Below are positions 3,619 to 26,900 of a stretch of DNA of 57,556 nucleotides, piece after piece (the stretch's first letter is position 1; every line of letters starts with the position of its first letter). Location: positions 1 to 57,556 of the IMG/VR virus record IMGVR_UViG_3300013132_000058. One strand, written 5' to 3'. A model generated the notes under the pieces. It was not told the DNA's origin. It made no database searches and was given only the letters and a program-made list of their open reading frames with translations. A program made the translations under genes and the position numbers. Source of the DNA: a virus (Duplodnaviria; Caudoviricetes).

Positions 3619-4742
3619 ATCACTTGGATTGGATATATCATCGCTCTATATTTTAATGCAGCGTTCAAATATTCCGCTTCTGATTTTTTTCGCTCCAATA
3701 ACTTTTCGGGTCTTAATCTTGTTAATATTCCTTCAGTACCTATCAGTTCTTCAATTAATTTAGACCTTTCATCTTTATATTCAGTTTGTAAAGATGTATA
3801 ATCTAATTTTACGGTACTATCGGGTACTTGTAACTCTCCAGAAAATTTACCCCATATTCTTGATAAACCTTCTTTAGCATAAGTCATCAAATAACGTCTT
3901 ATCCAATTCTGAGCAGGTTTATTCAACTTAGACCAAGTTAAAATTTCAGTTGCAACATCTGATGGTAATTTAACAATATCTTTATTTGCTTCCAAACATT
4001 CATCACGATTATCTGTAGTTTCATAATACCAATACCATAATTGGTAGTTATGTTGTTGTATTGAACCAAAATCAAATTTACCACCTGGTGTATTATATAA
4101 GTGTACAAGTTTTGTTCCATTTGGTCCTGCGGTAATTCTATATGTCAATTCTCCACCAATTAATCTGTTTTTAATGTTTCTATCTTGCATCCTTAACAAT
4201 AAATCAAATGCTGGTAACATGAAATAAGAACCTGATGTACCTACTTGTGCAAAACCACCAACACCACCGAAACCAACACCCCCAAGACCACCAAAACCAC
4301 CCAAAAATGGGTCAACAATTGAATCAGTTAATTCTGCCCTTGTGAACCATAATAACTCATTTATTTCTCTTCCTGCGGGAATTATATAGGTTTGTGTATT
4401 TGCGGTTAATGTGATATAATCTTTTTTTAATTCCCATGGTCCACCAGCTTGTAAACCAACAATTTTAGAATATGCATATGAATATTGTGTTTCATAATCT
4501 AAACTTCTTGTTGTAAATGCTCTAGTCAATGAAACAGCGTCAACATCAACATTAACCAACGAAGACCATTGTGATTCAATCAACCAATTGTAAATGTATT
4601 GTTCGTAATCATTAATGCTTAATTCTAAGAATGAATCCATTTGTTCTTCTGTAAGTTCAATACCTCTTACAGGCATTCCTAATAAATGAAATATTTGAGT
4701 ATATAATTTTTCTTTATCTATTTGTGATATTACTGTTGACAT
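3615..4742 (-). CDS. neck / head-tail adaptor protein (T4 gp13-like)
   Basis: The N-terminus LLGMPVRGIELTEEQMDSFLELSINDY resembles the gp13 family (LGxPV..ElxxxQ). It has a Gly/Phe-rich loop and a C-terminal RIWGKFSG..VPD. Confidence 0.7.
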   Translation of the reverse strand: MSTVISQIDKEKLYTQIFHLLGMPVRGIELTEEQMDSFLELSINDYEQYIYNWLIESQWSSLVNVDVDAVSLTRAFTTRSLDYETQYSYAYSKIVGLQAGGPWELKKDYITLTANTQTYIIPAGREINELLWFTRAELTDSIVDPFLGGFGGLGGVGFGGVGGFAQVGTSGSYFMLPAFDLLLRMQDRNIKNRLIGGELTYRITAGPNGTKLVHLYNTPGGKFDFGSIQQHNYQLWYWYYETTDNRDECLEANKDIVKLPSDVATEILTWSKLNKPAQNWIRRYLMTYAKEGLSRIWGKFSGELQVPDSTVKLDYTSLQTEYKDERSKLIEELIGTEGILTRLRPEKLLERKKSEAEYLNAALKYRAMIYPIQVI

Positions 4743-4779
4743 AGTTTGACATATTACAATAAATATTTTATATTTAGAT

Positions 4780-5013
4780 ATGGATACAAGTGATGAAAAA
4801 ATGAAAGAAATTTTATTATTTTGTTATCAAAACAAAATAATATTCGAATTTAATAAGGAAGGTACAAAAAATAAATTTATTATTGATAAAGTAGATGAAA
4901 AAAACAGATTTGTGTTATCGATACCCAATCCAAAAGACAAAAAATTAGAAAAACTCATTGTTGGTGGATTTAAAGAACTAAAAAATTTGATTAATCAAAT
5001 CTCTACTAAATGA
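4780..5013 (+). CDS. hypothetical protein (77 aa)
   Basis: ATG-started ORF preceded by TATATTTAG; it overlaps the 3' end of the convergent helicase gene by 36 nt. Confidence 0.55.
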   Translation: MDTSDEKMKEILLFCYQNKIIFEFNKEGTKNKFIIDKVDEKNRFVLSIPNPKDKKLEKLIVGGFKELKNLINQISTK

Positions 5014-6735
5014 TTCTGAATATTCACCATCGCCCATAACTTGGTCAATAATATTTTTCTTTTTTTGTAATATATTATAAATTATTCTTTCGATTGTATT
5101 ATCAAATATAGGATAGTAAACTAATACTGAATTTTTTTGTCCATACCTATATGCCCTATCTTCTGCTTGAGAATGGTGTGCTGGAACAAAAGATAAATCA
5201 TTCATTATTACAGTTTCTGCTGCTGTTAATGTGATACCAACACCTGCAGCAATTATATTACCTATGAATAATTTTGTTTTATCATTATTTTGAAATTTAT
5301 CGATACTTTCTTGTCTTTTATCTTTAGACATTCTACCATCAAGGGTTACAGAAATCTTTTTATATTTATCGTGTAATATTTCTAATGTATTTGTAAAATT
5401 TGTAAATACAATTATTTTTTTATCTTGTTCTAAAAACTTATCAATTAATTCACAGGTATATGGAATTTTTTCCATTGCAATTAATTGTCTAATTTTCATT
5501 AGTCTATTTAAGGTGACAGTAATACTTTCTTTATTTTTGTTTTCATTGGTAATTCTCATAAAATCTTCTAACTCTTCATCATAAAAAGTACTTTTTAATT
5601 CTAAAAATAACGGTGAAATAATTTTTTCTGGTAAATCTAATACATCTGTTTTTAATCTTCTAAGCACAATATTTTTAGTCAATTCTCTCAATTCATCCAA
5701 GTTAGAGGCACCACTTGTATTCCATATTTTTCTATTTCCAACCTTGAATTGATATCCTTTACAATATCTTTTTACATATGTTTGCCAATTTATTGCTAAA
5801 GGTGAGTTTACAATTTTAAGCAAGTTAAAATAGTTTATTGGTCTTGATGTCATAGGTGTACCCGATAACAACCATACTTTTGGTATTTCAGATAAAACAT
5901 CATTTAATAATTTTGTGCGGTTAGCTTGGGGATTACTGAGAAAATGACACTCATCCACTATAGCTAAATCAAAATTAGCATTTACTAATAATTTATAATC
6001 ATCACTATCTTCTGATTTTTCTGTTGTATGATAATTTTTTATGATATCATAATTGATAATGTAAAAATCAAAAGTTGAACCCCATTTTCTTCCTTCGACA
6101 ATTAATATTCTTCTATCAGTATAATTTTCAATTTCACGTTTCCAATTTATTTTAAGTGAAGCGGGGCAAACAATAAGTATTTTTTTTGCTTTTGATTCTA
6201 AAGATGATATCACCGCAATTGTGGTTTTTCCTAACCCTTGTTCATCTGCTAAAATATAACGGTCATTTGCTAAAAGTTTCTCTATTGCAATTTTTTGATG
6301 TTCAAGCGGTGGTCGATTAGAATATTTTGTGTAATCAATTTCTCTATCCAATTTTTTTTCTTCAACAACTATAGCTGTTTTTGGAACATAAAAACAATAG
6401 TTATTCTCTGATTCAATAATTTTTCCATATATGTGATATGCTTTATCAGTATCACACAATAATTTTTCACACCAAATACTTTCAGGAGGATTTACTAATT
6501 TTTTCTCATCCATGAGTTTATCTGCAAATGAAGAAGATAATTTTAAGAATTTTCTTGCAACTTTAGGGTTTATATTATGATATTTTAAAATATAGTCTGA
6601 TTGTGGTCTAGTGAGATTAATAATCTTTTTATTTAATAATCTTTTTTTCCATTCTAATATTTGATTATTAGAACCTTCATAATTTTCTAAAATATTTCTT
6701 GCTTTAATTTCAGGTGTTTCAATGTCCATATTCAT
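4978..6735 (-). CDS. SNF2-family (SMARCAL1/HARP-like) helicase/translocase
   Basis: Motif I ILADEQGLGKT, Ia IVCPASLKINW, II DECH, III LSGTP, V GVGITLT, VI QAEDRAYRYGQ. Confidence 0.92.
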   Translation of the reverse strand: MNMDIETPEIKARNILENYEGSNNQILEWKKRLLNKKIINLTRPQSDYILKYHNINPKVARKFLKLSSSFADKLMDEKKLVNPPESIWCEKLLCDTDKAYHIYGKIIESENNYCFYVPKTAIVVEEKKLDREIDYTKYSNRPPLEHQKIAIEKLLANDRYILADEQGLGKTTIAVISSLESKAKKILIVCPASLKINWKREIENYTDRRILIVEGRKWGSTFDFYIINYDIIKNYHTTEKSEDSDDYKLLVNANFDLAIVDECHFLSNPQANRTKLLNDVLSEIPKVWLLSGTPMTSRPINYFNLLKIVNSPLAINWQTYVKRYCKGYQFKVGNRKIWNTSGASNLDELRELTKNIVLRRLKTDVLDLPEKIISPLFLELKSTFYDEELEDFMRITNENKNKESITVTLNRLMKIRQLIAMEKIPYTCELIDKFLEQDKKIIVFTNFTNTLEILHDKYKKISVTLDGRMSKDKRQESIDKFQNNDKTKLFIGNIIAAGVGITLTAAETVIMNDLSFVPAHHSQAEDRAYRYGQKNSVLVYYPIFDNTIERIIYNILQKKKNIIDQVMGDGEYSESFSRDLINQIF

Positions 6736-6812: not shown

Positions 6813-7985
6813 ATGATTCTATCTAGAATTAAATACGATGAATTTATTCTTTCATTATTAGATGAAAGTAGTAGTGAATATAAAAAATTATTTAAACAAC
6901 AATTATCGAAAACTAATACTGAATCGATTCATGACATGCTTGTAAAACATAATTTTCAAGATGTTTATATATCATTTAGAGATGATTATCGAGTATCAAA
7001 TATTAATATCTATACGCCATATGATACACCAATAGGTTTATATGCGTATCCTTTATCTGATTTACTACAATCAAAAAAAATTTATATAAATAACAATTTT
7101 AATACGGAGTGGAATGATGTTAAATCTATTCCCGATGAAAAATTTTTTACAAATAGGGTATTTCCTTTTGCACAGGACAAACCTGTAATATATCTTTTTC
7201 ATATATCAGATAATTCTAATATAATTTTTACATCAAAAGATGATTTTGATAAAATATCATATTATTTAAAGAGAATTTATTCAATATTGAAAAATAAAAT
7301 GGAAATTTCAAAACCACAGATTTCATTGATTGAAGATATATGTTATAATTATTTAAACTATAAATTCTATAATTCAACTTGGTTCAAAAAAAGTGTTGTT
7401 GGAGCTCAAGCATTATGGAGTATAATATATGATATTTCAAATATACTAAAAATAAAACCTAATAAATTTTTTACATCGATTGTATATCAAATTGGTTTAA
7501 AGGGTGTAGTTGATGATGCTGGTCTTGGTGCAATACATCCTAATGAACCAATTCAAGCAGTATTTTTTTATGGTTATGAAAAATTGATTGATGATAAATT
7601 ATTGTTATCAAGAAGATTTGGTAAAAATTTTATGTTACCCGTGAGTAAACCATATTCTGAATATAATGAATTTGAAAAAAAGAAAATTTTGTTCAGAAAT
7701 CAAGATAAAATGTCTAAATTTTTTAGTGAGAAATTTAGAATGAATTACAGCCGTGTAAATGAATTTATTAAATATAAATATTTAATTAATAATAAAATAC
7801 CTGTTCCATTATACAATTTAAGTAAAAACCAATGGGATTTTATTTATATAAATCCATATAAAAAAATTTACAAATTATTGGATATAAAAGATGTTCATTC
7901 ATCTTGGTATAGTGAAAATAATGTAAGTCTTTTATTCAATGAAATTCAAAAAAATATAGTAAAACAAAAAAACCTTACAATGTGA
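6813..7985 (+). CDS. hypothetical protein, possibly an ADP-ribosyltransferase-like fold
   Basis: 390-aa ORF behind TATTTAT (6790-6796), with conserved-looking blocks TPIGLYAYP and GLKGVVDDAGLGAIHPNEPIQAVFF. The function is inferred only. Confidence 0.55.
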   Translation: MILSRIKYDEFILSLLDESSSEYKKLFKQQLSKTNTESIHDMLVKHNFQDVYISFRDDYRVSNINIYTPYDTPIGLYAYPLSDLLQSKKIYINNNFNTEWNDVKSIPDEKFFTNRVFPFAQDKPVIYLFHISDNSNIIFTSKDDFDKISYYLKRIYSILKNKMEISKPQISLIEDICYNYLNYKFYNSTWFKKSVVGAQALWSIIYDISNILKIKPNKFFTSIVYQIGLKGVVDDAGLGAIHPNEPIQAVFFYGYEKLIDDKLLLSRRFGKNFMLPVSKPYSEYNEFEKKKILFRNQDKMSKFFSEKFRMNYSRVNEFIKYKYLINNKIPVPLYNLSKNQWDFIYINPYKKIYKLLDIKDVHSSWYSENNVSLLFNEIQKNIVKQKNLTM

Positions 7986-9851: not shown

Positions 9852-12755
9852 ATGGCAACTTCAAACAGAGTTTTTGTATCCCCCGGTGTATATACATCAG
9901 AAAAAGATTTAACGTTTGTTGCACAAAGTATTGGTGTAACAACATTAGGAGTGGTAGGTGAAGCATTGAAAGGTCCTGCTTTTGAACCTATTTTGATTCG
10001 TGATTTCGACGAATTTAGGACATTTTTTGGTGGGACATCCATATTGAAAGATGGTGATGGTAATCCAAGATATGAATTATCATATGTTGCAAAATCATAT
10101 CTTCAAGAGTCAAATCAATTATTTGTAACAAGGATTTTAGGTCTCACAGGACATAAACCATATAGAACATATGGTATAACAACACTTGGTGGTTTAGAAC
10201 CTTCTCAAACAGGAACAACATCTATTGCTGCTTGGGAAAATAGTTTGTCGTCAAGTTCTACAGGTACAACCACTCCAACTGAATCAGGTATTACTGGTTC
10301 AACATTCTACTCATCATTGACGGGTAAAACATCGATTGATGGTACTTCAATGACAGAATACATTGTTCAGAATTTCAGTGGATTTACAACTGCCGACCAT
10401 AACAAATGGTTTGTAATTGGTTTAGTACCAACATCAGGAACTACAAGTTTAACTTCAACATTAGAGGAATTATCACCACTGACAGGATTGTACAATGATG
10501 ATAATACCAACGGTAAAGAATGGTATAATCAAATGTTTACCGATGCATTAACTGCAGTACATTCATATTTGTTTGTATATAATAGTGGAACGACATCATT
10601 TACAACTACAAGATATGTATATGATGCTTCTGTAAATACAGATTACGATGATATTGTGGTTGCTGCTTTAAGAAGTAGAGGTAGATATGTAAATGATGCA
10701 TTAATAAGAGAAGTAAGTGGTGCAACAAGTGTCACAGTATCTGACATTGATGACATTGGCTCAAATCCTCTTGGTGAATTTACATTAAGTGTCACAGGAG
10801 CTACTGGCGGAGAAAAAACGTTTACAACATCATTTGATAGTACATCTTCAAAATTCATTACTAAAGTTTTAGGTACTGATGTATTTGACAGGAATTATAG
10901 TGATTTTCCATTATATGTTCATGAAGTATATAACAATGAAATCGATAACTTATATGGTCTTGGACTCATTAGAGGTCTAAGTACGACCGTTACAACCAAT
11001 TTAGATGGTAATGACTTCTTAACTACTTGGAAGACATCATCGTCTCCTTATGTCGTTTCAGAAGTAAGGGGTAATAAAGTAAACAACTTATTCCAAGTTA
11101 TTACAATTTCAGATGGTGAATCTTCAAATTTCGATGTGAAGATTACAATACAAAACGTTGATTTAGAAAATAGTCAATTTGATGTATTAGTCAGAGACTA
11201 CAATGATACTGATGATAATATGGTTGTATTGGAGAGATATACAAGATGTTCATTAAACCCAACATTACCTGGTTATATTGCCAAAAAAATCGGTACATCT
11301 AATGGTGAATATGAATTGAAGTCAAAATACATCATGTTAAATATGGCTGATAATCATCCAACAGATGCAATTCCTGCTGGTTTCAAAGGTTATACAACAA
11401 ATGTTGATTTCGATACAAAAACTCTTGGTTCAATATCATATAAAACATCTTATTTATCTGCGGGTGATGTTGTTAAATATTTATCAAATGGTATACCCGT
11501 AATATCAAATGGTGACAAAGTAAGAAAAGTATCTCTAGGTTTTTCAACACAAGATGGATACAAATTTGATAGAGATTTACTGAAATATAAAGGTGTAAGT
11601 GCAACTGGAGTTACTCATGGATTCCATTTATCAACCAACGCATCTACAATCACTGGTAGTACATATGATGGTTATGAATTTAAAACAACTGAATATGATT
11701 TAGAAGGGACTAACAAAGGACTTTTAACAAGTATTGCTTACAGGAAATTCACATTTGTTACCGCTGGTGGTTTTGATGGATGGGACATTTATAGAGATGT
11801 AAGAACTTATTCGGATAGTTACATTTTTGGTAAATCACAATATGTATTAAATCATACAAATACTAATACTACAAATGGTGTGTTTGATAACACAACAGGT
11901 AATTCTGATTATTATTCATATCTACTAGGTATTCAAACATTTTCAAATCCAGAAGCGATTGACATCAATGTATTTGCGACTCCTGGTATCAATTTATCTG
12001 ACCATTCCTCTTTGACCCAACAATCAATCGACATGATTGAGACGGACAGAGCGGATTCACTCTATATCATCAATAGTAAAAATAGAAGTACTTCGGATGA
12101 TGTTATTGAAGACTTAGAAACAATTGATTTGGATTCTAATTATTCTGCAACATATTGGCCATGGATTCAAGTAAGAGATGAAGATAATGGAAGTCTTATC
12201 TATGTACCACCCACTTGTGAAGTAGTACGTAATATCGCACTTACTGATAACATTACTTATCCATGGTTTGCAGTAGCTGGTTATCAAAGAGGGTTGGTTA
12301 ATTCAGTCAAAGCATTTAAGAAGTTAACACTTGATGAAAGAGATGATTTGTATAATGCTAGAATCAATCCAATTGCAACCTTTGCAGATACTGGTACAAT
12401 CATTTGGGGTAACAAAACTCTACAGGTAAAAGAATCTGCGCTTGATAGAATTAACGTTAGAAGACTTCTTTTAAGAGCAAGAAAACTTATTTCGGCAGTT
12501 GCAATAAGATTGTTATTCGAACAAAATGATGAGCAAGTGAGAAATGAATTCCTAAGACTAGTCAATCCAATACTAGAATCAATCAAGAGAGAAAGAGGTT
12601 TATCTGAATTTAGAGTTACAGTATCGAATGATGTAGAAGACCTTGATGCAAATACATTGAGAGGTAAAATATACATTAAACCAATAAAATCGTTAGAATT
12701 TATTGATGTTGAATTTATTATTACTCCAACAGGAGCATCTTTTGAAAATATTTGA
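9852..12755 (+). CDS. contractile tail sheath protein (gp18-like)
   Basis: N-terminal VSPGVYTSEKDLTF and KGPAFEP; C-terminal PWFAVAGYQRG, RINPIATF, IWGNKTLQ, RINVRRLL, FEQNDEQVR and KPIKSLEFI. Confidence 0.95.
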   Translation: MATSNRVFVSPGVYTSEKDLTFVAQSIGVTTLGVVGEALKGPAFEPILIRDFDEFRTFFGGTSILKDGDGNPRYELSYVAKSYLQESNQLFVTRILGLTGHKPYRTYGITTLGGLEPSQTGTTSIAAWENSLSSSSTGTTTPTESGITGSTFYSSLTGKTSIDGTSMTEYIVQNFSGFTTADHNKWFVIGLVPTSGTTSLTSTLEELSPLTGLYNDDNTNGKEWYNQMFTDALTAVHSYLFVYNSGTTSFTTTRYVYDASVNTDYDDIVVAALRSRGRYVNDALIREVSGATSVTVSDIDDIGSNPLGEFTLSVTGATGGEKTFTTSFDSTSSKFITKVLGTDVFDRNYSDFPLYVHEVYNNEIDNLYGLGLIRGLSTTVTTNLDGNDFLTTWKTSSSPYVVSEVRGNKVNNLFQVITISDGESSNFDVKITIQNVDLENSQFDVLVRDYNDTDDNMVVLERYTRCSLNPTLPGYIAKKIGTSNGEYELKSKYIMLNMADNHPTDAIPAGFKGYTTNVDFDTKTLGSISYKTSYLSAGDVVKYLSNGIPVISNGDKVRKVSLGFSTQDGYKFDRDLLKYKGVSATGVTHGFHLSTNASTITGSTYDGYEFKTTEYDLEGTNKGLLTSIAYRKFTFVTAGGFDGWDIYRDVRTYSDSYIFGKSQYVLNHTNTNTTNGVFDNTTGNSDYYSYLLGIQTFSNPEAIDINVFATPGINLSDHSSLTQQSIDMIETDRADSLYIINSKNRSTSDDVIEDLETIDLDSNYSATYWPWIQVRDEDNGSLIYVPPTCEVVRNIALTDNITYPWFAVAGYQRGLVNSVKAFKKLTLDERDDLYNARINPIATFADTGTIIWGNKTLQVKESALDRINVRRLLLRARKLISAVAIRLLFEQNDEQVRNEFLRLVNPILESIKRERGLSEFRVTVSNDVEDLDANTLRGKIYIKPIKSLEFIDVEFIITPTGASFENI

Positions 12756-12771
12756 TTCCTAATTTTTCATC

Positions 12772-12807
12772 AAAAAACCCTCTTAATTAATTTTAAGGGG
12801 GTTTTTT
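12772..12807. terminator. bidirectional rho-independent terminator
   Basis: AAAAAACCCTCTTAA...TTAAGGGGGTTTTTT stem with A and T tails, between the sheath gene (+) and the convergent LDT-like gene (-). Confidence 0.8.
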
Positions 12808-12828
12808 ATTTATTTTTATTATATTTAC

Positions 12829-12924
12829 ATGTATAGAACTTTTAATAACTATCAAATATATTTTACCATGGACATAAAATTAAATTGTGAACATTGTAAT
12901 AAACAATTCATTGTCGTTCAATGA
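12829..12924 (+). pseudogene. short CxxC zinc-ribbon fragment, possible homing-endonuclease remnant
   Basis: MYRTFNNYQIYFTMDIKLNCEHCNKQFIVVQ-TGA, preceded by TATATTTAC; only one CxxC pair is present. Confidence 0.3.
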
Positions 12925-12940
12925 AATTTGAAATGTTACT

Positions 12941-13621
12941 TTAAGGTTGAACAAATAATTTTGTTCCGACATTTATTGTTGAAAGTAAATCCAATATACC
13001 ATTATTTGATATTCTAATACAACCTCCAGATGCTTTTCTACCTAATTGTTTTTCTCAATTTGTTCCGTGTATATATATACCTCTTGAAAATACATTCTTA
13101 TTGCATTCTTCATATCCCTGTAATACCAATATTCCTGTCAAAACTTCAGCTTTATGTAAATGTCCTTCTTCGTCTTTTCTAGTACTATCAATATTTGGTC
13201 CTAATACACTATTAATGGGTCTTTTACCAACCAATACTTGGTATTTTTTTGGTGATTTTATTTTATCTGACACTTTCATTAATCCAGGATTTGTGAGAAA
13301 TGAATTACTTGAACTTCCAAATCCATTGGCTCCAGTAGAAATTTTATATTGTCTTGTTAAACTTACACCATTATTGGTATAAAATAATGTTTGTGTTGGA
13401 CCCCAAACTATTAATAATGGTTCATTCTTTTTAATTTTATTATTCTTTAATAGAATACTATATACATCTTTCCAACTTTTTGCGTTCTTAGTGAATTTAG
13501 TACTACACTCTTCATTAGAAAAAAAACTTTTTATTTTACCGGTAACACGGTCTATAAAACCTTGTTCAGATAATAAGGTTACTAATTTATCTATTTGTTT
13601 TTCAGTAAGAATAATTTTCAT
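12941..13621 (-). CDS. L,D-transpeptidase (YkuD) family protein interrupted by an in-frame TGA at 13055-13057 (readthrough or pseudogene)
   Basis: YKISTGANGFG..S..TNPG, then RGIYIHGTN-TGA-EKQLGRKASGGCIRISNNGILDLLSTINVGTKLFVQP-TAA(12941). The His...S-x-G-C catalytic motif is complete only if the TGA is read through. Start ATG at 13621 (MKIILTEKQ). Confidence 0.8.
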
Positions 13622-13652
13622 ACTAATAAATATCAAAAAAAAAATTACCCAG

Positions 13653-13750
13653 TATACTAGAACTAGTTTTTTAGTTATTTTCTATTATTATTTTTTTAAA
13701 TTTTATATATTAATTATTAGATATTACTTCTAGTTCTAAGTACTAGTATA
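13653..13750. repeat. CTAG-rich imperfect inverted repeat flanking an AT-rich spacer (candidate replication origin or operator)
   Basis: TATACTAGAACTAG (13653-13666) versus CTAGTTCTAAGTACTAGTATA (13730-13750), around about 63 nt of nearly pure A/T. Confidence 0.5.
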
Positions 13751-13898
13751 GAAAAAATACGAATTTTTTCCGAGAAAATCAATAGGTTGAGACAAATTTT
13801 TTTCATAAACATAAATTTTTTAATACTTTCAATATTTTTTTTATTGTCTAAGTGTTTTTTTTTATAAGGTGATATTTATTTGTAAATATAATACTAAC

Positions 13899-14387
13899 AT
13901 GGCGGACTTACTAATGAAAATGCCCCTCCCTTACGAACCCAAAAGAAAAAATAGGTTTATATTAAGGTTTCCATCATCATTGGGGATAAATGAATGGTAT
14001 GTTTTTTCAACAAGCAGACCAACAGCAAAAATTAAATCAGTTGAAATACCTTTTCTTAATACATCAACATACGTTGCAGGTAGATTCGATTGGGAAGAAA
14101 TTAAAGTTCAATTTAAAGACCCCATAGGACCTTCTGCATCACAAGCATTAATGGAATGGTTTCGTTTACATGCGGAATCCGTGACAGGTAGAATGGGTTA
14201 CGCAGCAGGATACAAGAAAGATGTTGAACTTGAAATGCTCGACCCAACAGGTGTTGTAGTTGAAAAATGGATTCTTCAAGGATGTTTCTTAACTGGCTTG
14301 AATTTTGGTGACTTGAACTATAGCCAAGATGAATTAGCTACAATTGATGCATCTCTTAGAATGGACCGTTGTATACAAGTATACTAG
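13899..14387 (+). CDS. tail tube protein (gp19-like)
   Basis: YEPKRKNRF, YVAGRFDWEEI, YKKDVELEMLDPTGVVVEKWILQGCF, FGDLNY, LRMDRC; it follows the sheath gene. ATG 13899. Confidence 0.9.
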   Translation: MADLLMKMPLPYEPKRKNRFILRFPSSLGINEWYVFSTSRPTAKIKSVEIPFLNTSTYVAGRFDWEEIKVQFKDPIGPSASQALMEWFRLHAESVTGRMGYAAGYKKDVELEMLDPTGVVVEKWILQGCFLTGLNFGDLNYSQDELATIDASLRMDRCIQVY

Positions 14388-15786: not shown

Positions 15787-18700
15787 ATGGCAAGGTCAAA
15801 AACACTACAGCAACATGCAATTAATTCTTCAAATTTTTCTGACTATCTTCGTAGAGTATCAAATGATGGTTATGATGTAAATGATAGAGGAGAAGCTGAC
15901 CAAATTTTTTCAGTTTGGGCACAAAGAGAAGGTCCATCTAGAGGTAATCAACCTAATAATAATGATACAAAATCATTTAGTAATATATTGAGTGCATTCC
16001 GAAGTAATGCACAATTCACATCTATTGAACAAGAAAATATCAAGGTTGATAAATTTGTGGAGTCATTCATGGGTATTATTAAACAACCAAAAAAAGTAAA
16101 TATTTTTACTCAGCCATCAGAAATTATAAAACAATTGATTCAATCTTCTTTTATAGAACTTGTAAATCAATTAGAAATATATTATAGAGAACAATCAGCA
16201 TTAAGAACCGCAATAAATAAAGATGCTGGTCTAAATTTTCAATTTGCAGAATCTTATAGAAAAACACTAACTGACGCAAGTCCAAAACTATTACAATATG
16301 GTATTAGTTTTAAAGATTTGGCAGAAACATCAGTTGCATTAGTAAAAAATACTGGTCGTTTTTATACACTTAATGAAACTTCAATTATTAGAGCTGCACA
16401 AGTTTCAGGTGCATATATGGATTCTATGTATGATATGACGACATTACTACCTGCATTTGAAAAAATTGGTATTGGAGCAACAGAAGCAATGGAAAGTATT
16501 GCAAGAGCGGGTAAGGATTCTATTTCTTTAGGTTTAAGGGCACAAAATGTCACCAAACAAGTCGGGGCAAACATTGACAAATTAAATCAATATGGATTTA
16601 AAAATGGTGTCGATGGTCTTACAAAAATGGTTCAAAAATCCATAGAATTTAGAATGTCGATGGAAGAAGTTTATAAAATTGCGGATAAGGTAATGTCTCC
16701 TGAAGGTGCAATAGAATTATCTGCGAATTTACAAGTTTTAGGTGGTGCCATCGGTGCGTTTAATGACCCTATGCAGTTGATGTATATGGCAACTAACAAT
16801 GTTGAAGGATTACAAGATGCATTAATTCAAGCATCTTCTAATTTGGCTACATACAATCAAGAACAACAACGTTTTGAGATTACAGGTGTCAACTTACGTT
16901 ATGCTAAACAAATGGCAGCAGACTTAGGTGTGACGTATAATGATTTAGCACAAGGTGCAATTGCAGCTGCAGAAAAAAGTTCAGCTGCATCTGATTTATT
17001 GAGAGCAGGATTAATATTGGATGATGAAGATAAAGAGTTTATTACCAATATTTCTAAGATGAAAGATGGAAAAATGGTAATTGACGTAAGTAATTCAACT
17101 AAATTACAAGAATTTTTTGGTGGAACTTCGGTTGCACTTGAAAATTTGGACCAAGCACAAGTTGAAATGATAAAACAATATAGAAGTCAATTAACTAAGA
17201 AAACAGAAGAAGAAATTATATTTAATCAATATACAAGTATAACAAATATTGAAAACTCAGTGAATTCAATTGCAGCTCGATTGAGAACTACTGCTGGTAG
17301 GGGTTTGGAAAATATTGTGATGGATAAGGGTATGCGAAAATTGATGGAAACGTTTGGAATGGAAATCGACGAAAATAGACCAGTAACCGAAGAAATTACC
17401 TCTAAATTGACTAGTCTTGTAAATAGTTTAAATGATAAACAACTTAGATATTATGAATTAGATAAAGAAGTTATAAATCGTTTTAAAAAAGAAATAGAAT
17501 CTTATGAAGATGCACTTGGATTAAAAAAAGAAAGCAGTACAGAAACCAAACCAGTAACTCCCCAAAAACAAAGTACACCCACTAAAATTGAACCTAAGAA
17601 AGAAGGCGAAAATGCATATGATAAATTTAAAGATAATATCTCAAATAACATTAGCATTATGACAGGTTTAATAAATAGTGCGTTTGGTAAAATATCAGAT
17701 GCATATAATAGTATGTCCGATAGACTTTTTTCGGTAAATAAGGATTCGAAGAATCACTTATCAAGTATAGACGGAAATATCAAAACGTTAGTTGATAAAT
17801 CAAATACAAATGTAACAGCTAAAGTTAATAGTAAAAATTCATCATCACCTATAGTTACAACAGAAAATGATGATTTGGCAAAATTAGTATCTTATTTATC
17901 ATATGAAGATTATACAATATATACATATTTAAAAGAAATAAGTAATTCATTTAAATCATATGCTGAAAATACATCATATAAAACATCAGAAATAAAAGAA
18001 ACAAAACCCAAAAAAGAAAAAGCAGAATTATTTTTTGATAAAGGATATAAAGCACCTGTACAAAAACGAAAAGTAAATGACGAAAATGTTGATAAAAAAA
18101 ATAATGAAGAAACAATAACAGGACCTTTTAAAAATGTTTCTAATATAGAATCTAATAGTGATAAAACTATTCAACCACCAAAAATTGAACAAAACCTATT
18201 AACTAAAAATATTACTGAAATTCTAAATAATATTAGTAGTTTGAATACTGAAGGAAATAGTAGTTTGAAATCATTATATGATTTATCTAAAGAATCAAAT
18301 AATATTTTATCCAATATACAAAAAAATACATTACCCAAAATTGATACCGATAAAACACTTTTAAGACAAGACACACTTGTAACTGAAAAAATAGTCAGTC
18401 AACCAAACACACCACAAACAGATTTAATATCTAATTTATTTCCAATTATACAAAATATAAGAGATGATATTTCAGATATTTTAAATTCTAATATACTTTC
18501 TGAAGGAAAACTATACGACATTAACAATCAGATGGATTTATCTATAAAAAATAATGAAAAAAATAATATAGTTATAAGTCAACCAAATGTAATTGAATAT
18601 AACAAAATAGGTAACCAAATTTTTACACAACTTGTAGATGTAATGTCAAAACCTAATCCGACTGAAAAAACAGATAAAACAATTACAGTAAGACATATAC

Positions 18701-18837
18701 ACGAACACCAACATATTGTAAAATCTCCGGCAATGGAAGATGCACTAGCAAGATATATTACTAGATTTCCGAATTTTTTTAGAGAGTCACAATCTATGGA
18801 TGAGAGAAGTTATACAAATACTGAGATAATAACATAA
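15787..18837 (+). CDS. tape measure protein (putative)
   Basis: 1016 aa with a helical Ala/Gln-rich core (EGAIELSANLQVLGG, DPMQLMYMA) and a low-complexity C-terminal half, in the canonical position after the chaperones. Confidence 0.75.
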   Translation: MARSKTLQQHAINSSNFSDYLRRVSNDGYDVNDRGEADQIFSVWAQREGPSRGNQPNNNDTKSFSNILSAFRSNAQFTSIEQENIKVDKFVESFMGIIKQPKKVNIFTQPSEIIKQLIQSSFIELVNQLEIYYREQSALRTAINKDAGLNFQFAESYRKTLTDASPKLLQYGISFKDLAETSVALVKNTGRFYTLNETSIIRAAQVSGAYMDSMYDMTTLLPAFEKIGIGATEAMESIARAGKDSISLGLRAQNVTKQVGANIDKLNQYGFKNGVDGLTKMVQKSIEFRMSMEEVYKIADKVMSPEGAIELSANLQVLGGAIGAFNDPMQLMYMATNNVEGLQDALIQASSNLATYNQEQQRFEITGVNLRYAKQMAADLGVTYNDLAQGAIAAAEKSSAASDLLRAGLILDDEDKEFITNISKMKDGKMVIDVSNSTKLQEFFGGTSVALENLDQAQVEMIKQYRSQLTKKTEEEIIFNQYTSITNIENSVNSIAARLRTTAGRGLENIVMDKGMRKLMETFGMEIDENRPVTEEITSKLTSLVNSLNDKQLRYYELDKEVINRFKKEIESYEDALGLKKESSTETKPVTPQKQSTPTKIEPKKEGENAYDKFKDNISNNISIMTGLINSAFGKISDAYNSMSDRLFSVNKDSKNHLSSIDGNIKTLVDKSNTNVTAKVNSKNSSSPIVTTENDDLAKLVSYLSYEDYTIYTYLKEISNSFKSYAENTSYKTSEIKETKPKKEKAELFFDKGYKAPVQKRKVNDENVDKKNNEETITGPFKNVSNIESNSDKTIQPPKIEQNLLTKNITEILNNISSLNTEGNSSLKSLYDLSKESNNILSNIQKNTLPKIDTDKTLLRQDTLVTEKIVSQPNTPQTDLISNLFPIIQNIRDDISDILNSNILSEGKLYDINNQMDLSIKNNEKNNIVISQPNVIEYNKIGNQIFTQLVDVMSKPNPTEKTDKTITVRHIHEHQHIVKSPAMEDALARYITRFPNFFRESQSMDERSYTNTEIIT

Positions 18838-18884
18838 GCATAATTAATTTTTTTTGTTGCTCTATTTATTATTAAAACATTTGA

Positions 18885-21800
18885 ATGCCATTAGATTTTG
18901 ATTCAACAAAACAATTTAGAGATTTTGTATTATCGAGAACTTTACAAGTTCCGAATGGTCCACAATCATTTACATCACAAAATTATATAGTACAAAATTT
19001 GAATCAATTTCCAAATTTAGACCCTGGCGCAGTTGATACAAATCGACAGATAGATTTATTAATACCATCAACTAATAACATATTTAAACCCACACAATAT
19101 TTTATAAAAGATGTGTTAGAAACAATACCTAGACGAGCTAATCTATCACTATATTATAACGGTACACCTTATTTCTTGAGTGGTGAATATAATTTAGTCG
19201 GCATTATGAGTAATGATAATTATGATAATGAGTCTGAATTATTCAAATTTGCAGCATCATATATCCGAGACAGGACACAAAAAGGACCAGTTTATTCAAG
19301 ATTAGAACAAAACTTACTTAAATCGACTTTAGGAAAAATAAGATTATTAGATGCTCTTCAAGGTAATTTAGCAACTGCAACAAATATTGTTACTGGTAGG
19401 GAGCCATTAGTGGAATCAAATAATAATATTACAGTTGCGAAAACTCCAATTGGTAAAGGAATTGATTTTATTCAAACTGTTGCTGGTGTTGAGTTTCCTT
19501 GGACAGAAATACCTGGTGATTATTTAACTAATCCAAATAGACAAACAGAAAGAAGAAATACAGCAAATACTGAAATTGGTAGAACGTTACAAGATGCATC
19601 TGGCGCATTATTATCAATTTTCGGTGTACAAAGAAAACCATTGGAAACACGAAAACCTTCAGATATATTTATTGAATATACTGGTACAGGACCAAAACAA
19701 CAATTATTTGATTTATTATCAAAATCAAAATACGCTCCAAATTATACAACAACTGCAAGGTCACAAAACACATCAAAACTATTTAACTTTATTGATAAAG
19801 CTGCCCAAGGTATTAAGAATTTAATTGGTACTGAAGCACCTGAAGGAGTTGCATATATTGGAGATGATAGGGGTAATAATGTTATCAATACTATGTCAGA
19901 TATGAATGGTAACATAGTAAAAAGTAATTATTATCTAAGTTTACTTTTTGATGAATCACAATCAAGATTATTTGAACGTACAAAAAACGTAAGTGAATCA
20001 GGAGAAATTTCAGGTAAACTAACTTGGATAAGTCGAAATTCCAATAATAAATTAGGTGTAAATAATGATGAATACAATACACAATCATCAAATTTAGAAA
20101 AATCGCTATCAACAAATTACGAATTCAGAGAAGATTCAATTTTTGGATATACTCAACAATTATTAGACAGTATGCCAAAAGGTGGAGAATCTAGAAATCA
20201 TATCGGTAATGTAATAGACCAAACATCAAGAGTTTTTAAAGAAGGTGATAAGTTTTTATCTAGAGGTTCATCTATCAAATATGTGGACAAATTTACAGGT
20301 ATAGAATCGGGTGTTGAATACTGTAGAACATGGACAAAAGATAGACCATATTTATCCTATTCAGATACAATGAAAATAGGTGGAAATAATAGAAAATTTG
20401 AAGGTACAGTAGTATCTAATCCATGGAATTTGAATATTGGTCCAATGTCAAATGGAAAGAAAGGTTTCGAAAATTCTTCAAATATATTCGATGGATATAA
20501 TTTTGGTACTGATAAAGATGGTAATTCTTTTTATGCTAAAAAATATATGTTTTCCATAGAAAACTTAGCATGGAAAACATCAACATCACCTGGTTTCACT
20601 GTTTTGGATTTACCAGTATGTGAAAGAGGACCAAATGGTGGTCGTATTATGTGGTTTCCACCTTATGATTTAAAAGTAAGTGAACAAAATAGTGTTAAAT
20701 GGGATGAAAATAATTTCATAGGAAGACCCGAACCAATATATACGTATAATAATACAACAAGAAGTGGGACACTAGGTTTCAAAATAGTGGTGGACCACCC
20801 AAGTATATTAAATTTATTGACTAGAGAATTTTTTGAAAACATGTCAGATGAAGAATCTGACAATTATATTAATGCATTTTTTGCTGGTTGTGAAACATTA
20901 GATTTTTATGAATTGATACGAAGGTTTAGTACATTGGACCCAACGGATATTGAGTATATAAAACAGTATTTGAATGATTCAAAAAACACAGACCAAGAGG
21001 TAGTAAGAAAATATAAAACCGTATTAAATCCAACTGTAAATGAAAACACACCTGTAACAAATAAATCCAATAAAGAAGAATCATCATTAATCGAAGCATC
21101 ACCTTTAAACGTTACGTTATATTTTGATGATGGTGTACCACTTACAGAAACTGGATTAATAACGCAAACGGATTATGAAAAATTATATTCTAGCTACGTT
21201 GTTAAACAAAATATTTATTCGAGTGAATTGAATAATTTATTAATAAATCTTACTGGAACAACATTTACAAATGATGTTTTACCCAATGTAAAAAATGATA
21301 GAAAACTTATATACAATACAGAAAACGATGTTAGTAGTGAAAAAATAACATCAAAAGTAAATTTTTATAATAATAATTTTAGTGTTTTTACAATTCGACA
21401 TAGTTTTTATGTAGTTTATCTAACAGATTTAAAACAACTTTTGACTGAAGGTAAATCTGAGGATATTAAGATTATAATTAATTCGAGTGCGTCATCAAGA
21501 GATACCACCGAAAAAAATTTATTGCTTACATTTAGACGTTCATATAGTGTCTTGTTAGATATTTTTAAAAAAATTACTAAAACAGATTCTACTCCACCAC
21601 AACCAAAATGGGTAGATACAAAAGATAAAAAAGAATTTGTAAGTGTATATTCATCAAAAAATGATTTTGGTTATGATTATGACACAAAAATTACAGTTAC
21701 TATTACAAACTCAGGTGAAACTTATCCAGGTTGTGAAAATAAAGATTTTAAATATAAAACAAGATTGGGTATAGTATCTCCAATTGCATTTGAGTGTAGA

Positions 21801-23648
21801 AAAACAGAAGTAAATATAACATATAAAAAAAGTTCAACTGAGGATACAAAAAAACAAAATGACAATACAACAGTAATACAAAGTCAATCCCCGACTAGAA
21901 TTATTATAGATGGTGAAACACAAGTCCCGACTAAAGTTAAAAAACCACCTATTGATATAATGAAAAGAATTATAATGAAAACATTATCTGAATGTTTTTA
22001 TTTCAAAAAATTAGATGAAACATCACCAACAGTTTTTAATTCATTAAGAGAAAAATTAAGATATTTTCATCCTGCCTTCCATTCAACAACACCAGAAGGG
22101 CTAAATTCACGATTGACGTTTATTCAACAATGTTTACGACCTGGTGAGACATTACCAATAAAAGGGTTATCAGATTCAACTGATTTGAATGCCCGTAATA
22201 CCACATTCGGTCCCCCACCAATATGTATTCTACGAATAGGTGACTTTTATCATTCAAAAGTTGTTATAAGAGATGCACAAATAAGCTATGATGACTCTAC
22301 ATGGGATTATAACCCTGAAGGTATTGGATTACAACCTATGATTGCAAGTGTCACACTTTCCATATCATTCATCGGGGGTCAAGGATTAGAGAGACCAGTA
22401 GAAAGATTACAGAACGCACTATCATCTAATTTTTATGCTAATACTGAGATTTATGACGAAAGGTCAATTCAAACAAACACATTAATATCAGGTAAAGATG
22501 CAGAAAAATTCACTAAGGAATTTTTAGAAGATTTACTGAAAAGAGATAATAGAACACCTGAACCTGAAAGTGAAAACAACGGTAGTACATTAAGAAACGG
22601 TAAATATATCGGTGAATTTTCTGAAGGGGTCTTATCATATGCAAAATTGGTTATCGATGTACATAATAAAATAAAAAATTATTTTAAAGTATTTACAGAA
22701 TCATATAATATTTTAATTCCTTTTTATGGGAAAAAATTGAGTAACTTGATTTTATCGAATACCTATCGTACTATAAAAACATATGATATTTGGACACCCT
22801 CAGATAGTTTATCATCACCTTCAGAATCAATTGATTTGTTAGGATTATATCCAAAAGGAAAAGAATTATCAATATATATTCAAGTTGTAAAAAGACAATT
22901 TATAACAACACTAAAAAATAGTAATCCATCGGTAATATTTGGGTTTGATAAATTTATGGATAGTTCTTTAATAACAAAAACAAATGATGAATATCTATAT
23001 AAATTTTTAGAAAAAGAGGTATCAACTATTTTTGATGATATGACAAATAATTCTCAAATATATGCAATTGAAAATTCAAGAGATGAATTAATTAAATCAA
23101 TTGACAATGTAAATTTTATTGTCAAACATGGGAAAGATTTTATGATGATGCCAGATAAAAGTACAAATACCAATGTTGGCACTCAAGTTACTTTAAGTGG
23201 TTTTACCAAAAATTTATTATATGATGAGTATTCTTATGGTATTGATTATATAAATAATAATACATCAAAATTATATGAAGATTTAGATACGACAATAAAT
23301 TTTAATAATCCGACATTTACAACAAGTGATGTATCTGAAATAATGAAATCAATATTAAAAAATAAAAAAAATAATTTATTAAATATTTTTACTGATAGAA
23401 GTTTATATAATGATAATGTTCTCAAAAAAATGTCAAATTCTTTAGATAAATTTTTTAATGATTCACCAACCGAAAAAAAATTTAAATTAGGTAAGTATAA
23501 AGATTATGTTGAAAAAATATTATCATATACAATCAATACAACAACTGACGCAAATCCGTCCGATACTATCTATGTTGATGGTGATAAAATAAATAAATCA
23601 CCAATATTGGTAAAAGATAAATTAAACTACTATAAAACTAAGTTATAA
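18885..23648 (+). CDS. large baseplate / tube-initiator-like protein with an internal OmpA-like domain
   Basis: Tube-initiator-like blocks WFPPYDL, FIGRPEPIYTY and PPICILRIGDFYHSKVVI, split by an insert containing SSASS...NLLLTFRRSYSV...GE...CRKTEV. Confidence 0.6.
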   Translation: MPLDFDSTKQFRDFVLSRTLQVPNGPQSFTSQNYIVQNLNQFPNLDPGAVDTNRQIDLLIPSTNNIFKPTQYFIKDVLETIPRRANLSLYYNGTPYFLSGEYNLVGIMSNDNYDNESELFKFAASYIRDRTQKGPVYSRLEQNLLKSTLGKIRLLDALQGNLATATNIVTGREPLVESNNNITVAKTPIGKGIDFIQTVAGVEFPWTEIPGDYLTNPNRQTERRNTANTEIGRTLQDASGALLSIFGVQRKPLETRKPSDIFIEYTGTGPKQQLFDLLSKSKYAPNYTTTARSQNTSKLFNFIDKAAQGIKNLIGTEAPEGVAYIGDDRGNNVINTMSDMNGNIVKSNYYLSLLFDESQSRLFERTKNVSESGEISGKLTWISRNSNNKLGVNNDEYNTQSSNLEKSLSTNYEFREDSIFGYTQQLLDSMPKGGESRNHIGNVIDQTSRVFKEGDKFLSRGSSIKYVDKFTGIESGVEYCRTWTKDRPYLSYSDTMKIGGNNRKFEGTVVSNPWNLNIGPMSNGKKGFENSSNIFDGYNFGTDKDGNSFYAKKYMFSIENLAWKTSTSPGFTVLDLPVCERGPNGGRIMWFPPYDLKVSEQNSVKWDENNFIGRPEPIYTYNNTTRSGTLGFKIVVDHPSILNLLTREFFENMSDEESDNYINAFFAGCETLDFYELIRRFSTLDPTDIEYIKQYLNDSKNTDQEVVRKYKTVLNPTVNENTPVTNKSNKEESSLIEASPLNVTLYFDDGVPLTETGLITQTDYEKLYSSYVVKQNIYSSELNNLLINLTGTTFTNDVLPNVKNDRKLIYNTENDVSSEKITSKVNFYNNNFSVFTIRHSFYVVYLTDLKQLLTEGKSEDIKIIINSSASSRDTTEKNLLLTFRRSYSVLLDIFKKITKTDSTPPQPKWVDTKDKKEFVSVYSSKNDFGYDYDTKITVTITNSGETYPGCENKDFKYKTRLGIVSPIAFECRKTEVNITYKKSSTEDTKKQNDNTTVIQSQSPTRIIIDGETQVPTKVKKPPIDIMKRIIMKTLSECFYFKKLDETSPTVFNSLREKLRYFHPAFHSTTPEGLNSRLTFIQQCLRPGETLPIKGLSDSTDLNARNTTFGPPPICILRIGDFYHSKVVIRDAQISYDDSTWDYNPEGIGLQPMIASVTLSISFIGGQGLERPVERLQNALSSNFYANTEIYDERSIQTNTLISGKDAEKFTKEFLEDLLKRDNRTPEPESENNGSTLRNGKYIGEFSEGVLSYAKLVIDVHNKIKNYFKVFTESYNILIPFYGKKLSNLILSNTYRTIKTYDIWTPSDSLSSPSESIDLLGLYPKGKELSIYIQVVKRQFITTLKNSNPSVIFGFDKFMDSSLITKTNDEYLYKFLEKEVSTIFDDMTNNSQIYAIENSRDELIKSIDNVNFIVKHGKDFMMMPDKSTNTNVGTQVTLSGFTKNLLYDEYSYGIDYINNNTSKLYEDLDTTINFNNPTFTTSDVSEIMKSILKNKKNNLLNIFTDRSLYNDNVLKKMSNSLDKFFNDSPTEKKFKLGKYKDYVEKILSYTINTTTDANPSDTIYVDGDKINKSPILVKDKLNYYKTKL

Positions 23649-23650
23649 AA

Positions 23651-23977
23651 ATGAGTAGAAATTATTTTGATAGATATCAATTTTTTGAAACAGATGGTAA
23701 TTTCAGAATTGTACCTGGTATAGAATTACCGATAAAATCAAGTGATAAGTACATAACATATAATAAAGGACGTACAAGATTAGATAAAGTTTCACAAGAT
23801 AATTATGGTTCACCTACGTTTGGTTGGTTAATTATGCAGGCAAATCCTGAAGTTGGAGGTATTGAATTTGAAATTCCTGACAATTATGTTCTGAGATTGC
23901 CATTTCCTTTAATTCCATCTTTACAAGATTACAAAAGAGCAGTAGATTTATATAATTTATATTATGGGGAACAATAA
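23651..23977 (+). CDS. baseplate wedge LysM-like protein (gp53 / P2 gpX-like)
   Basis: RLDKVSQDNYGSPTFGWLIMQANP...LRLP matches the RLD.ia..yYG....wW.I..aN pattern. Confidence 0.75.
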   Translation: MSRNYFDRYQFFETDGNFRIVPGIELPIKSSDKYITYNKGRTRLDKVSQDNYGSPTFGWLIMQANPEVGGIEFEIPDNYVLRLPFPLIPSLQDYKRAVDLYNLYYGEQ

Positions 23978-26900
23978 TTTGTCTGATAGTGAAAAAATTT
24001 TAGTCAAGGTAGACCACAATAATTTAATTTATATTGACCCTAATAGTGTTATTGATAATGATGGTAGTCCTCAACCAAGAAATGTCAAACAAGAGAATTT
24101 GATTATGTTTGTAAACTTGGAAGCAGATATAATTCCGAGGTCAATTTTAAAATCTGAAAACGATAGAAATACATTAGTGTCCATTGCAAGAGGAACTTTG
24201 AATTTTTTGAGAAATCAGAAAGGTGGTGATTATGATACTAATTGGACAGAATCATTTTATTCGCAACAAAAAAATGTGAATATACCTTTCGGTAACACAG
24301 GATTATCAACACAAATTAAAATTAATGACGATTACTATGATGAAACAGGACAATCATTTGGTATTGATAGTATCAACATATCAATCAAAGGAGCTAATTC
24401 AATCCCACAGGTAAACATATCATTTATTGATGTTAGAGGTAAAACATTATTTGAATCACCTGAAAATTCAGCATATAAAGCATTTTTTCATCTTCCATGG
24501 CCAATTTTTTACCTAACATTGAAAGGTTATTATGGTAAAGCAATAAAATACAGATTACATTTATCCAAATTCAGTAGTAAATTCAATGATTCAACAGGTA
24601 ATTTTGATATTACAACAACTTTTGTTGGTTCAACATTTGCATATTTGAATGACATATCATTAAATTTGATAATGAATGCTCCCTATATGTACTATGTTGA
24701 AAATACAACAACAAAAAATACAGACACTAATGAAACTATTGTTGAAATATCTCGTACATCGAAAGGTTACCAAATACTTAAATCAATATATGCAGAATAT
24801 GAAAGGAAAGGTTTAGTTGAAAAAGGTTTTCCAATAAAAACTTTAAGAGAATTAATCAGAAACGCTGAAAATTTAGATAAAACATTAGAAAAAACAATTT
24901 TAAATGATAAATTAAATCCTATTGTTTTTGTAGGAATGAATGAATTTGAAAAATCAATCGAAAATTTTGAGAAAGCGTGTATAGAGTGGGCTAAAAAATA
25001 TTTGTTACAAACAGGTGAACTTGATAATGATAATTTTAGATGGTATGAATTAAATTCACAAAACAAAAAAAGTAGTGAAAACATTATTGGATTAACTGGA
25101 ATTACATTAGAAAAAATAGTTATTAATAATGTTGATAATATAAATAAAAATAAGTTATTTGCAGAAGAAGTAAAAAATTTAATTAAATCACAAAAAACAG
25201 GAAATTCAAATTTTTCTGTAGAAAATATATTATCTAAACCAATCAAATGGAGTGATAAATATTACAGACAAAATTCAAAAAATCAACAATATGAAGTAAA
25301 ATTTGATTTATTAATTTCAGAAATAAGAGAAATTAAAAAAACATTCGACACTGAAAAAGATAAATTAATAAATTATGTTGAAGATGAAATGAATAAAATT
25401 ATAATAAATAAAGATTTTGAAGGAGGGTTTGGGTTCAAACCAACCATAAAAAATATTTTTGCGGTAATTTTAGCAAATGCTGATGTGTATATTAGATTGA
25501 TGAAAGATGTACATCAAAAATCGTTTAATAATGGAAGTGAAAGACAAAAAAACATTGGTAATTTATCTAAAGAAACTTTGTATGATAAATCAATATATCC
25601 ATGGCCAGAAATTAAAAAACCATCCGAAAAAGACAAACAAAATGTCATTGCATATCCTGGTGATAATGATTTGATTGAGAAGTTGAAATCGGATGATGCT
25701 GAATTATGGCCTGAAGTTGATTTCGTCGAAAATTACATAAGGGTTGCAACAAACAAATCAGACCCAAACTCAGAAAAAGAAACAGGTATTGATAATATTA
25801 ATTTCAAATTACCTGATGATAAAAATGCAAATAATTTTCAACCATTAAATGCGTTTTCCATTGTAAGTGAAAATATACCATATATTGATAAATCTCCATC
25901 ATCTTTTTTGTATGAAATTTGGGAAAGAGCAACTTACATAAATTTAGTTGATTCTTTTGATTATTCAACATTGAAAGAATTATCAGATGTTGAGTTTATA
26001 AATATAAAAAATTCGATTGTTGAAGATACTGAAATTATTAATATTTTAAGTAAAGATATTACCAGTGTAAATATATTGACACAAAAATTGAGTGAATATT
26101 CACCATTTGAACGATATCCATTTTATCAAGATGAATTATCAACTATACCATATATAAAAGATTCTATTAATGTACCATATAAAATTGTTGAAAATAGTTC
26201 AATTAATAAAAATATAATAACTCAAAAATATGATAATTTAAAAAAGCAATTATCAACGTATAAAGCAGAATCTTATAGAAAAAATATATATCCTTTCAAT
26301 TCTGATTTATATCTATCTTATTTGAAACAAAATTCATATACTGATGATGAATTGAAATTTACAAATCAATTTGTTGTTGATATTACTGATTCATTAATAC
26401 AAACATCTGATAGTGTAAATTATGTGAAATCAAAATACACAATCAATATGTTTGATAATAAATTAAAAATCAATAACACGAATGTAAATTTATTGAATAC
26501 ATCATTTTTTCATAGACAAATATATTATGATTTTATAAAACAATCTAGCATCGGAAAATATGTTGCATCATCATATTTGTTATTAAATTCGTTACCATTT
26601 ATTGATTTAGATGAGATTGTGTCTATAGGTGGAGATACAGTTTCTAAAGTGAAATATTCTGCATTATTCAGAGAAATTGGAGCAACACATGATATACCAT
26701 ATCATTTAATTTGTAAATGGGGTTCAATATATCATAGGTATAAGAAATATATAATAGATGGTGTTGATATATTAGGAAATATTTTAAATCCAAATAAAAA
26801 AACAAGACCAATTGACGGTGAATTATTTTTCAATAACAAAGAAACATCTTCAGAATTCACAGCATTTACAATTAATGGTGAGACTGTCACATATAATCAA

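Follow-up and report, generated by a model that had tools for sequence, protein, structure and literature searches.

Results

The stretch of DNA analysed here, hereafter the window, comprises the entire 57,556 bases of an IMG/VR virus record, with a GC content of 28.4%. CheckV rates it 18% complete, which implies a genome of ~320 kb, and its source is an uncultured AT-rich jumbo myophage of roughly that size from lake water. On the minus strand, antisense between the tail sheath and tail tube genes, lies a gene of the YkuD (L,D-transpeptidase-fold) family that, read as uninterrupted, occupies positions 12941..13621 and comprises 226 codons followed by TAA at 12943..12941. Our reading of the window places an in-frame TGA at codon 189 of this gene (13055..13057, minus strand), between the motifs HGTN and SGGC and followed by a G.

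The sheath gene (9852..12755, plus strand, 967 aa), which matches Phage_sheath_1 and Phage_sheath_1C and ends in TGA, is convergent with the YkuD gene. Its best deposited match, Microcystis phage Mel-JY01, is 33% identical, its C-terminal part matches Flavobacterium phages at 40% identity, and no named family could be assigned. The gp19-like tail tube gene (13869..14387, plus strand), whose match to Phage_T4_gp19 (E 1.4e-05) lies below the Pfam cut-off, is divergent from the YkuD gene and is followed by a T4-baseplate-like gene; it is 85% identical to 10 related loci, with homology beginning at residue 10. Very large ORFs of the tail/baseplate region (1016, 1587, 1919, 1396 and >2069 aa) lie within 15787-29723, 42511-46701 and 51350-57556 of the window.

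Past the TAA of the full-length YkuD frame and, read in that direction, before the sheath end, an inverted repeat (I12, 93% complementary) forms a terminator-like hairpin at 12772..12807 with a 15-pair stem flanked by an A-run and a T-run (one found against 0.3 expected), which may act as a bidirectional intrinsic terminator between the two convergent genes. Upstream of the YkuD ATG, no Shine-Dalgarno-like purine run was found in 13622-13868 (tttttttttgatatttattagtATG), and this, together with the 28% GC content and the Flavobacterium-phage matches of the sheath, might hint at a Bacteroidota-type host.

The YkuD gene starts with the ATG at 13621, where its MKIILTE matches the MKIIITE of homologues, and under the standard code its 5′ part (13058..13621, minus strand) yields a product of 188 residues, covering a low-confidence N-terminal stretch of 36 residues and the YkuD β-core up to His185-Gly-Thr-Asn, that ends ...SRGIYIHGTN at N188 before TGA 13057..13055. 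The 3′ part (12944..13054, minus strand) continues in the same frame with 37 intact sense codons, EKQLGRKASGGCIRISNNGILDLLSTINVGTKLFVQP, up to TAA 12943..12941, and carries Ser198-Gly-Gly-Cys201-Ile-Arg203 together with the strands and the helix that complete the fold. The catalytic residues are thus distributed on both sides of the stop, with the codon for His185 (13069..13067) upstream and those for Cys201 (13021..13019) and Arg203 downstream, so the gene lacks an uninterrupted frame that places His and Cys on one polypeptide, and the full motif H-G-x(n)-S-x-G-C-x-R (H185, C201, R203) exists in the read-through frame only. A preliminary description of this DNA had reported a YkuD-family gene with a TGA between its catalytic His and Cys, an open frame of 37 codons beyond it and a truncated product without the nucleophile Cys, and our minus-strand reading bore this out in every detail. 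The family assignment likewise held, as the 226-residue read-through protein matches Pfam YkuD (PF03734) over residues 72-224 with an E-value of 4.2e-16 and 60.3 bits against a cut-off of 23.4.

Both parts lie in one frame, so frameshifting is not needed to join them. None of the in-frame codons that separate the TGA from Cys201 is ATG, GTG or TTG, and reinitiation is therefore unable to rescue the nucleophile, which led us to reject a split enzyme made by reinitiation.

An AlphaFold2 model of the read-through protein, built from 32 aligned sequences, reached a mean pLDDT of 85.7 and a pTM of 0.80 and showed the β-sandwich fold of the YkuD family. A Foldseek comparison with solved structures returned Bacillus subtilis YkuD (1y7m) as the top match (E 3.6e-08), with 4jmn and LdtMt2 chains among the further top matches (E 1e-7 to 1e-8, probability 1.00). 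The family profile in turn matches solved L,D-transpeptidases across HGTN...S-x-G-C-x-R, with the catalytic His, Cys and Arg aligned. According to the model, a product truncated at the TGA is left without strands 196-198, 202-204 and 221-225, without helix 206-215, and without Cys201 and Arg203. Residues 1-36 are modelled with a pLDDT below 50; this N-terminus, MKIILTEKQIDKLV..., is charged and helical, and by inspection shows no evident signal peptide or LysM-type domain. The N-terminal segment is kept in the family as MKIIxTE.Q...L.EQ, and Cys39 is nearly invariant. L,D-Carboxypeptidases are also found among YkuD-fold proteins, and the phage proteins are putative peptidoglycan cross-linkers or cleavers.

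To judge whether the stop is real, we compared the window with contigs from two public sequencing runs, X1 and X2, that come from different samples and studies, were sequenced and assembled separately, and differ in contig structure. A 7775-nt X1 contig with a word depth of 8.54 covers 12000-14270 with 0 differences from the window, and in X2 two separate short contigs at depth 3.8, one of 235 nt over 12910-13144 across the TGA and one over 13216-13626, likewise show 0 differences. Both runs are from lake water and date from 2020, so they may belong to one campaign, and X1 may be the source sample of the window. Identical letters in both make a one-off sequencing or assembly error unlikely; the preliminary description had called such an error equally possible, which no longer holds now that X2, from a separate sample and study, shows identical letters at the codon. 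As contigs were compared, minor alleles stay hidden, and an intact allele may co-exist with the interrupted one.

Related viruses carry a sense codon at this position. In all 23 related viral loci codon 189 is AAA (19), AGA (2), AAG (1) or AGG (1), with no internal stop in the matched region of any of them, and when 31 homologous proteins are aligned, this column holds K in 21, R in 7, and Q, H and Y once each. Five further homologues that we inspected are intact through the Cys motif, and H185, C201 and R203 are invariant across the 32 aligned sequences. The stop, whose conservation among homologues the preliminary description had left for alignment to decide, is therefore confined to this lineage as far as these 23 loci and 31 proteins extend. 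In a collection of 5.8 billion proteins the only one ending at HGTN was the window's own 188-aa product (P0002); none of 46 matches, which range from 124 to 396 aa, is another homologue of ~188 aa with that end, and apart from the window's own product the protein search returned no relative above 57% identity. Among metagenome contigs, a scan with the YkuD protein gave 594 pattern matches, none confirmed as relatives, and a 35-nt pattern around the TGA codon gave 0 matches; a 29-nt pattern matched viral contigs only three times, all at known distant loci with AAA at the codon.

The identity of the ancestral codon can be approached through this column, in which Arg is the sole observed residue one substitution away from TGA. 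With 458 of 635 occurrences, AGA dominates among the window's Arg codons, and L012, the relative nearest in composition and local motif (28.8% GC, LGRKASGGC), has AGA at codon 189. Because of these three observations, an A-to-T change from AGA (Arg) to TGA appears to be the most parsimonious origin of the stop.

The sequence beyond the stop has kept the character of a coding region. The tail retains all seven family-invariant residues (E190, L193, G194, S198, G200, C201 and R203) and is 51-68% identical to syntenic homologues, as compared with 61-63% for domain residues 71-188, and with this level of alignment and the retained invariants it is not a chance open frame. The ratio of YkuD to sheath distance is 1.3 for the window and 1.5-3.1 for most pairs with intact genes, mosaic outliers apart, and we thus see no sign of prolonged relaxed selection on the gene at the level of its sequence. 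The open tail discriminates weakly by itself: although a single substitution could turn 17 of its 37 codons into stops, at 0.1 substitutions per site it would still escape any new stop with a probability of 0.48, and a tail that is still translated would look the same. In the collections searched, no relative came closer than 57% identity.

TGA serves as an ordinary stop in the rest of the window. The 32 standard-code ORFs cover 93.7% of it (17,981 codons) and end in TAA (24), TGA (5) or TAG (3); TGG occurs 158 times in them, and no other TGA lies in frame. Four complete genes end in TGA, namely those at 6813-7985, the sheath gene at 9852-12755, the GT2 gene at 38424-39101 and that at 40624-42456, the fifth such end being that of the truncated YkuD ORF. 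The sheath TGA follows the conserved ...TPTGASF(E/D)NI and aligns with TAA in 10 of 10 relatives. When the window was read with table 4, no other main-strand gene fused with its neighbour and the TGA-ended genes gained just 5-26 codons; the YkuD gene alone gained a stretch of known homology, and the 26-codon extension of the sheath is without counterpart in relatives. These results uphold two statements of the preliminary description, that TGA is an ordinary stop elsewhere and that the genome as a whole is not recoded. For the ORF at 6813-7985 (390 aa), Pfam gave no match. L012 lacks a counterpart, the genes on either side being 68 bp apart there, and an insertion or deletion appears to distinguish these close relatives.

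Signals that could direct recoding at the TGA were sought in the RNA and among tRNA genes. A 116-nt region from 18 nt upstream to 95 nt downstream of the TGA folds at −10.8 kcal/mol (z 0.30) and was equalled or surpassed by 120 of 200 shuffled sequences, so no structure is evident 3′ of the stop, and selenocysteine insertion or structured readthrough was rejected on this ground. The 57,556-base window, which is 18% of the genome, contains 0 tRNA genes. In G001, a complete relative of 321 kb with direct terminal repeats whose YkuD protein is, at 46% identity, a distant one, ARAGORN assigned sense anticodons to all 24 tRNAs, including Trp(CCA) and Ser(TGA), and none of the 24 is a suppressor with anticodon TCA. 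A suppressor tRNA could still lie in the remaining 82% of this phage's own genome. The G001 tRNAs cover most amino acids and comprise a 23-tRNA cluster (C1:134990-140972) and a lone tRNA-Ser(TGA) at 161395-161482.

The YkuD family recurs in related phages. At 11 viral loci (L002-L011 and L013) the gene neighbours the sheath gene, the tube gene or both, with relative order and orientation unchanged; both neighbours are present at 7 of these loci, and the family also occurs in complete phage genomes of 317-321 kb at 46% identity. A tblastn search of 50,697 deposited phage records with the read-through protein gave no match at E 1e-5, and its only PHROG match is a weak one (E 4.6e-4) to an entry without assigned function. 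A limited literature search found nothing on YkuD genes in jumbo phages, from which we claim no absence from print; a YkuD domain in a gut-phage endolysin is mentioned in passing in PMC13284279. We regard the occurrence in the tail module of uncultured lake jumbo phages as a new membership of a known family.

The site and the sequence of the gene vary within this group. A YkuD homologue with 50% identity to that of the window lies at another site in L012 (L012:6001-6681), whose flanking genes are the most similar among the relatives (63-87% amino-acid identity); it is located between homologues of the SNF2-type helicase gene (4978-6735 in the window) and the gene at 3615-4742, where the window has only a 235-bp spacer (4743-4977). 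L012 ends inside its sheath gene, before any copy between sheath and tube would be reached. Given this different site, either the YkuD gene has changed place within this group of phages or the group has two paralogues of it. Furthermore, L006 and L008 share 98.5% identity in the sheath and 70.5% in YkuD, and L008 and L007 share 94.8% in YkuD and 78.9% in the sheath, which suggests recombinational exchange of the small antisense YkuD gene among related phages.

Discussion

Taking these observations together, we consider it likely that the TGA is a genuine, lineage-specific and recent nonsense substitution in an accessory YkuD gene, which is the alternative that the preliminary description had named as a very recent nonsense mutation and the one that best fits K or R in relatives, an AGA codon one step away and the lack of further decay. 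An AGA to TGA substitution would have occurred in one lineage, and since the rest of the gene is undecayed, we take it to be recent relative to the divergence of the family. Under the standard code, translation would stop after His185-Gly-Thr-Asn, and the main product would lack Cys201 and Arg203; judging from the model, this 188-residue fragment would be catalytically dead and probably unstable. The gene would then be a fresh pseudogene, or else tRNA-Trp, as a near-cognate and without any programmed signal, would still read the UGA in a small percentage of cases and so allow some full-length enzyme, with no dedicated recoding device involved. Ordinary leakage of this kind amounts to a few per cent in model bacteria, and Trp at codon 189, which tolerates K, R, Q, H or Y, should do no harm. 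Against a recent nonsense mutation speaks that the TGA allele is the consensus in two samples, as a strongly deleterious allele might not persist.

Two of the rival readings deny that a standard stop interrupts the gene. That the phage truly has a sense codon at 13055-13057 and the TGA is a sequencing or assembly error is a concern for any metagenome assembly of modest word depth (8.5 and 3.8) known from contigs only, but the agreement of X1 and X2 over 12910-13144 and the nature of the site, a substitution-type difference outside any homopolymer run, render it most improbable. That the phage or its host reads TGA as Trp or Gly (tables 4 or 25) would suit a very AT-rich genome and a YkuD frame that is open under table 4; this reading contradicts the terminus of the sheath, whose TGA sits exactly at the TAA of all ten relatives, merges no other gene, and leaves TGG as the Trp codon 158 times beside no other in-frame TGA in 32 ORFs, and both W and G are absent from the codon-189 column of the 31 homologues. 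We rejected an alternative code, refuted as far as 57.5 kb shows, and its probability is close to nil.

The other rivals accept the stop and give it a use. The preliminary description had proposed programmed or suppressor-tRNA-dependent readthrough that acts as a safety switch. On this view selection would keep the TGA so that the cell-wall-active enzyme is completed only in the presence of a phage-encoded UGA suppressor or of conditions that promote readthrough, whether for timing or for safety, and several features would agree with it, namely an intact 37-codon tail with all invariant catalytic residues, a TGA allele that is the consensus in two samples, a variable codon 189 that should tolerate an inserted residue, the tRNA richness of jumbo relatives (24 in G001) beside the unseen 82% of this genome, and the recoding of stops in late and lysis genes described for other phages (bioRxiv 10.1101/2021.08.26.457843). 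The proposal nevertheless found no support, as none of the 23 loci or the 31 aligned proteins shares the stop, the region downstream is unstructured (z 0.30), and no suppressor was found in the window or in G001. The sheath and three other genes end in TGA, which is the opposite of recoded phages, and a suppressor would also lengthen the sheath by 26 residues, so we judge such a switch quite unlikely. Very unlikely, in our view, is selection for the truncated form itself as a non-catalytic peptidoglycan-binding or regulatory remnant with a tail that is dead and not yet decayed; two samples carry the allele, and codons 1-188 are undamaged and match homologues in their degree of conservation, but the remnant, deprived of three strands and a helix of a compact single domain, is unlikely to fold, and no homologue of similar length ends at HGTN among the 46 matches. 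The UGA could instead be kept as a crude attenuator of expression, with basal reading by tRNA-Trp, which jumbo relatives encode themselves (CCA in G001), giving a small percentage of a Trp189 enzyme, and this we regard as unlikely. If it were true, the stop would reduce an activity that remodels peptidoglycan and does harm when fully expressed, and the intact tail and the allele shared by two samples would reflect ongoing purifying selection rather than recency.

Under the preferred reading of a recent nonsense substitution, the stop itself is an ordinary phenomenon, a caution that a lone in-frame stop in a metagenomic phage contig should not be taken for recoding; were it maintained, it would be a natural case of a phage enzyme attenuated by a leaky UGA. 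Of modest value is the well-conserved YkuD-fold family that, in a clade of AT-rich, uncultured jumbo phages from lakes, lies antisense between the genes for sheath and tube and has no counterpart in deposited phage genomes, for which virion-associated wall remodelling, lysis and superinfection exclusion are candidate roles.

In profile, motif and fold the read-through protein belongs to the YkuD/L,D-transpeptidases (PF03734), including B. subtilis YkuD (1y7m), LdtMt1 and LdtMt2 of Mycobacterium tuberculosis, and PDB 4lzh. It differs from the solved enzymes in that it is only 15-19% identical to them in sequence, in that its ORF is broken between His and Cys, and in that its gene sits in a phage tail module. 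The A1 protein of phage Qβ arises from leaky readthrough of a UGA by tRNA-Trp, and both the stop and the extension behind it are conserved and essential. Low-percentage reading of UGA by tRNA-Trp would likewise give a longer product from the YkuD gene, whereas the stop of Qβ is conserved and the one described here is unique to one lineage.

For prokaryotic genes, Belinky et al. 2021 (PMC7918605) argued that lone in-frame stops are common, are often transient, and lower rather than abolish expression, and the YkuD gene resembles their cases in having a single nonsense codon in an otherwise undamaged gene. We assign it to this class of lone stops, and not specifically to the maintained ones, which are recognised in sets of close relatives by conservation of the stop or a dN/dS below 1. 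Recoding of stop codons in phage late and lysis genes with suppressor tRNAs has been described by Borges et al. (bioRxiv 10.1101/2021.08.26.457843), and code 15 has been described in crAss-like phages (PMC9523058). The window shares with such phages an in-frame stop in a cell-wall-acting gene of a large phage. No suppressor tRNA was found in the window, which is 18% of the genome, or in G001. However, recoded phages carry many in-frame stops across their late genes, whereas the window has one in 57.5 kb and clean sheath, tube and baseplate genes, and it uses TGA as a terminator; in these defining features this phage is unlike the stop-recoded phages.
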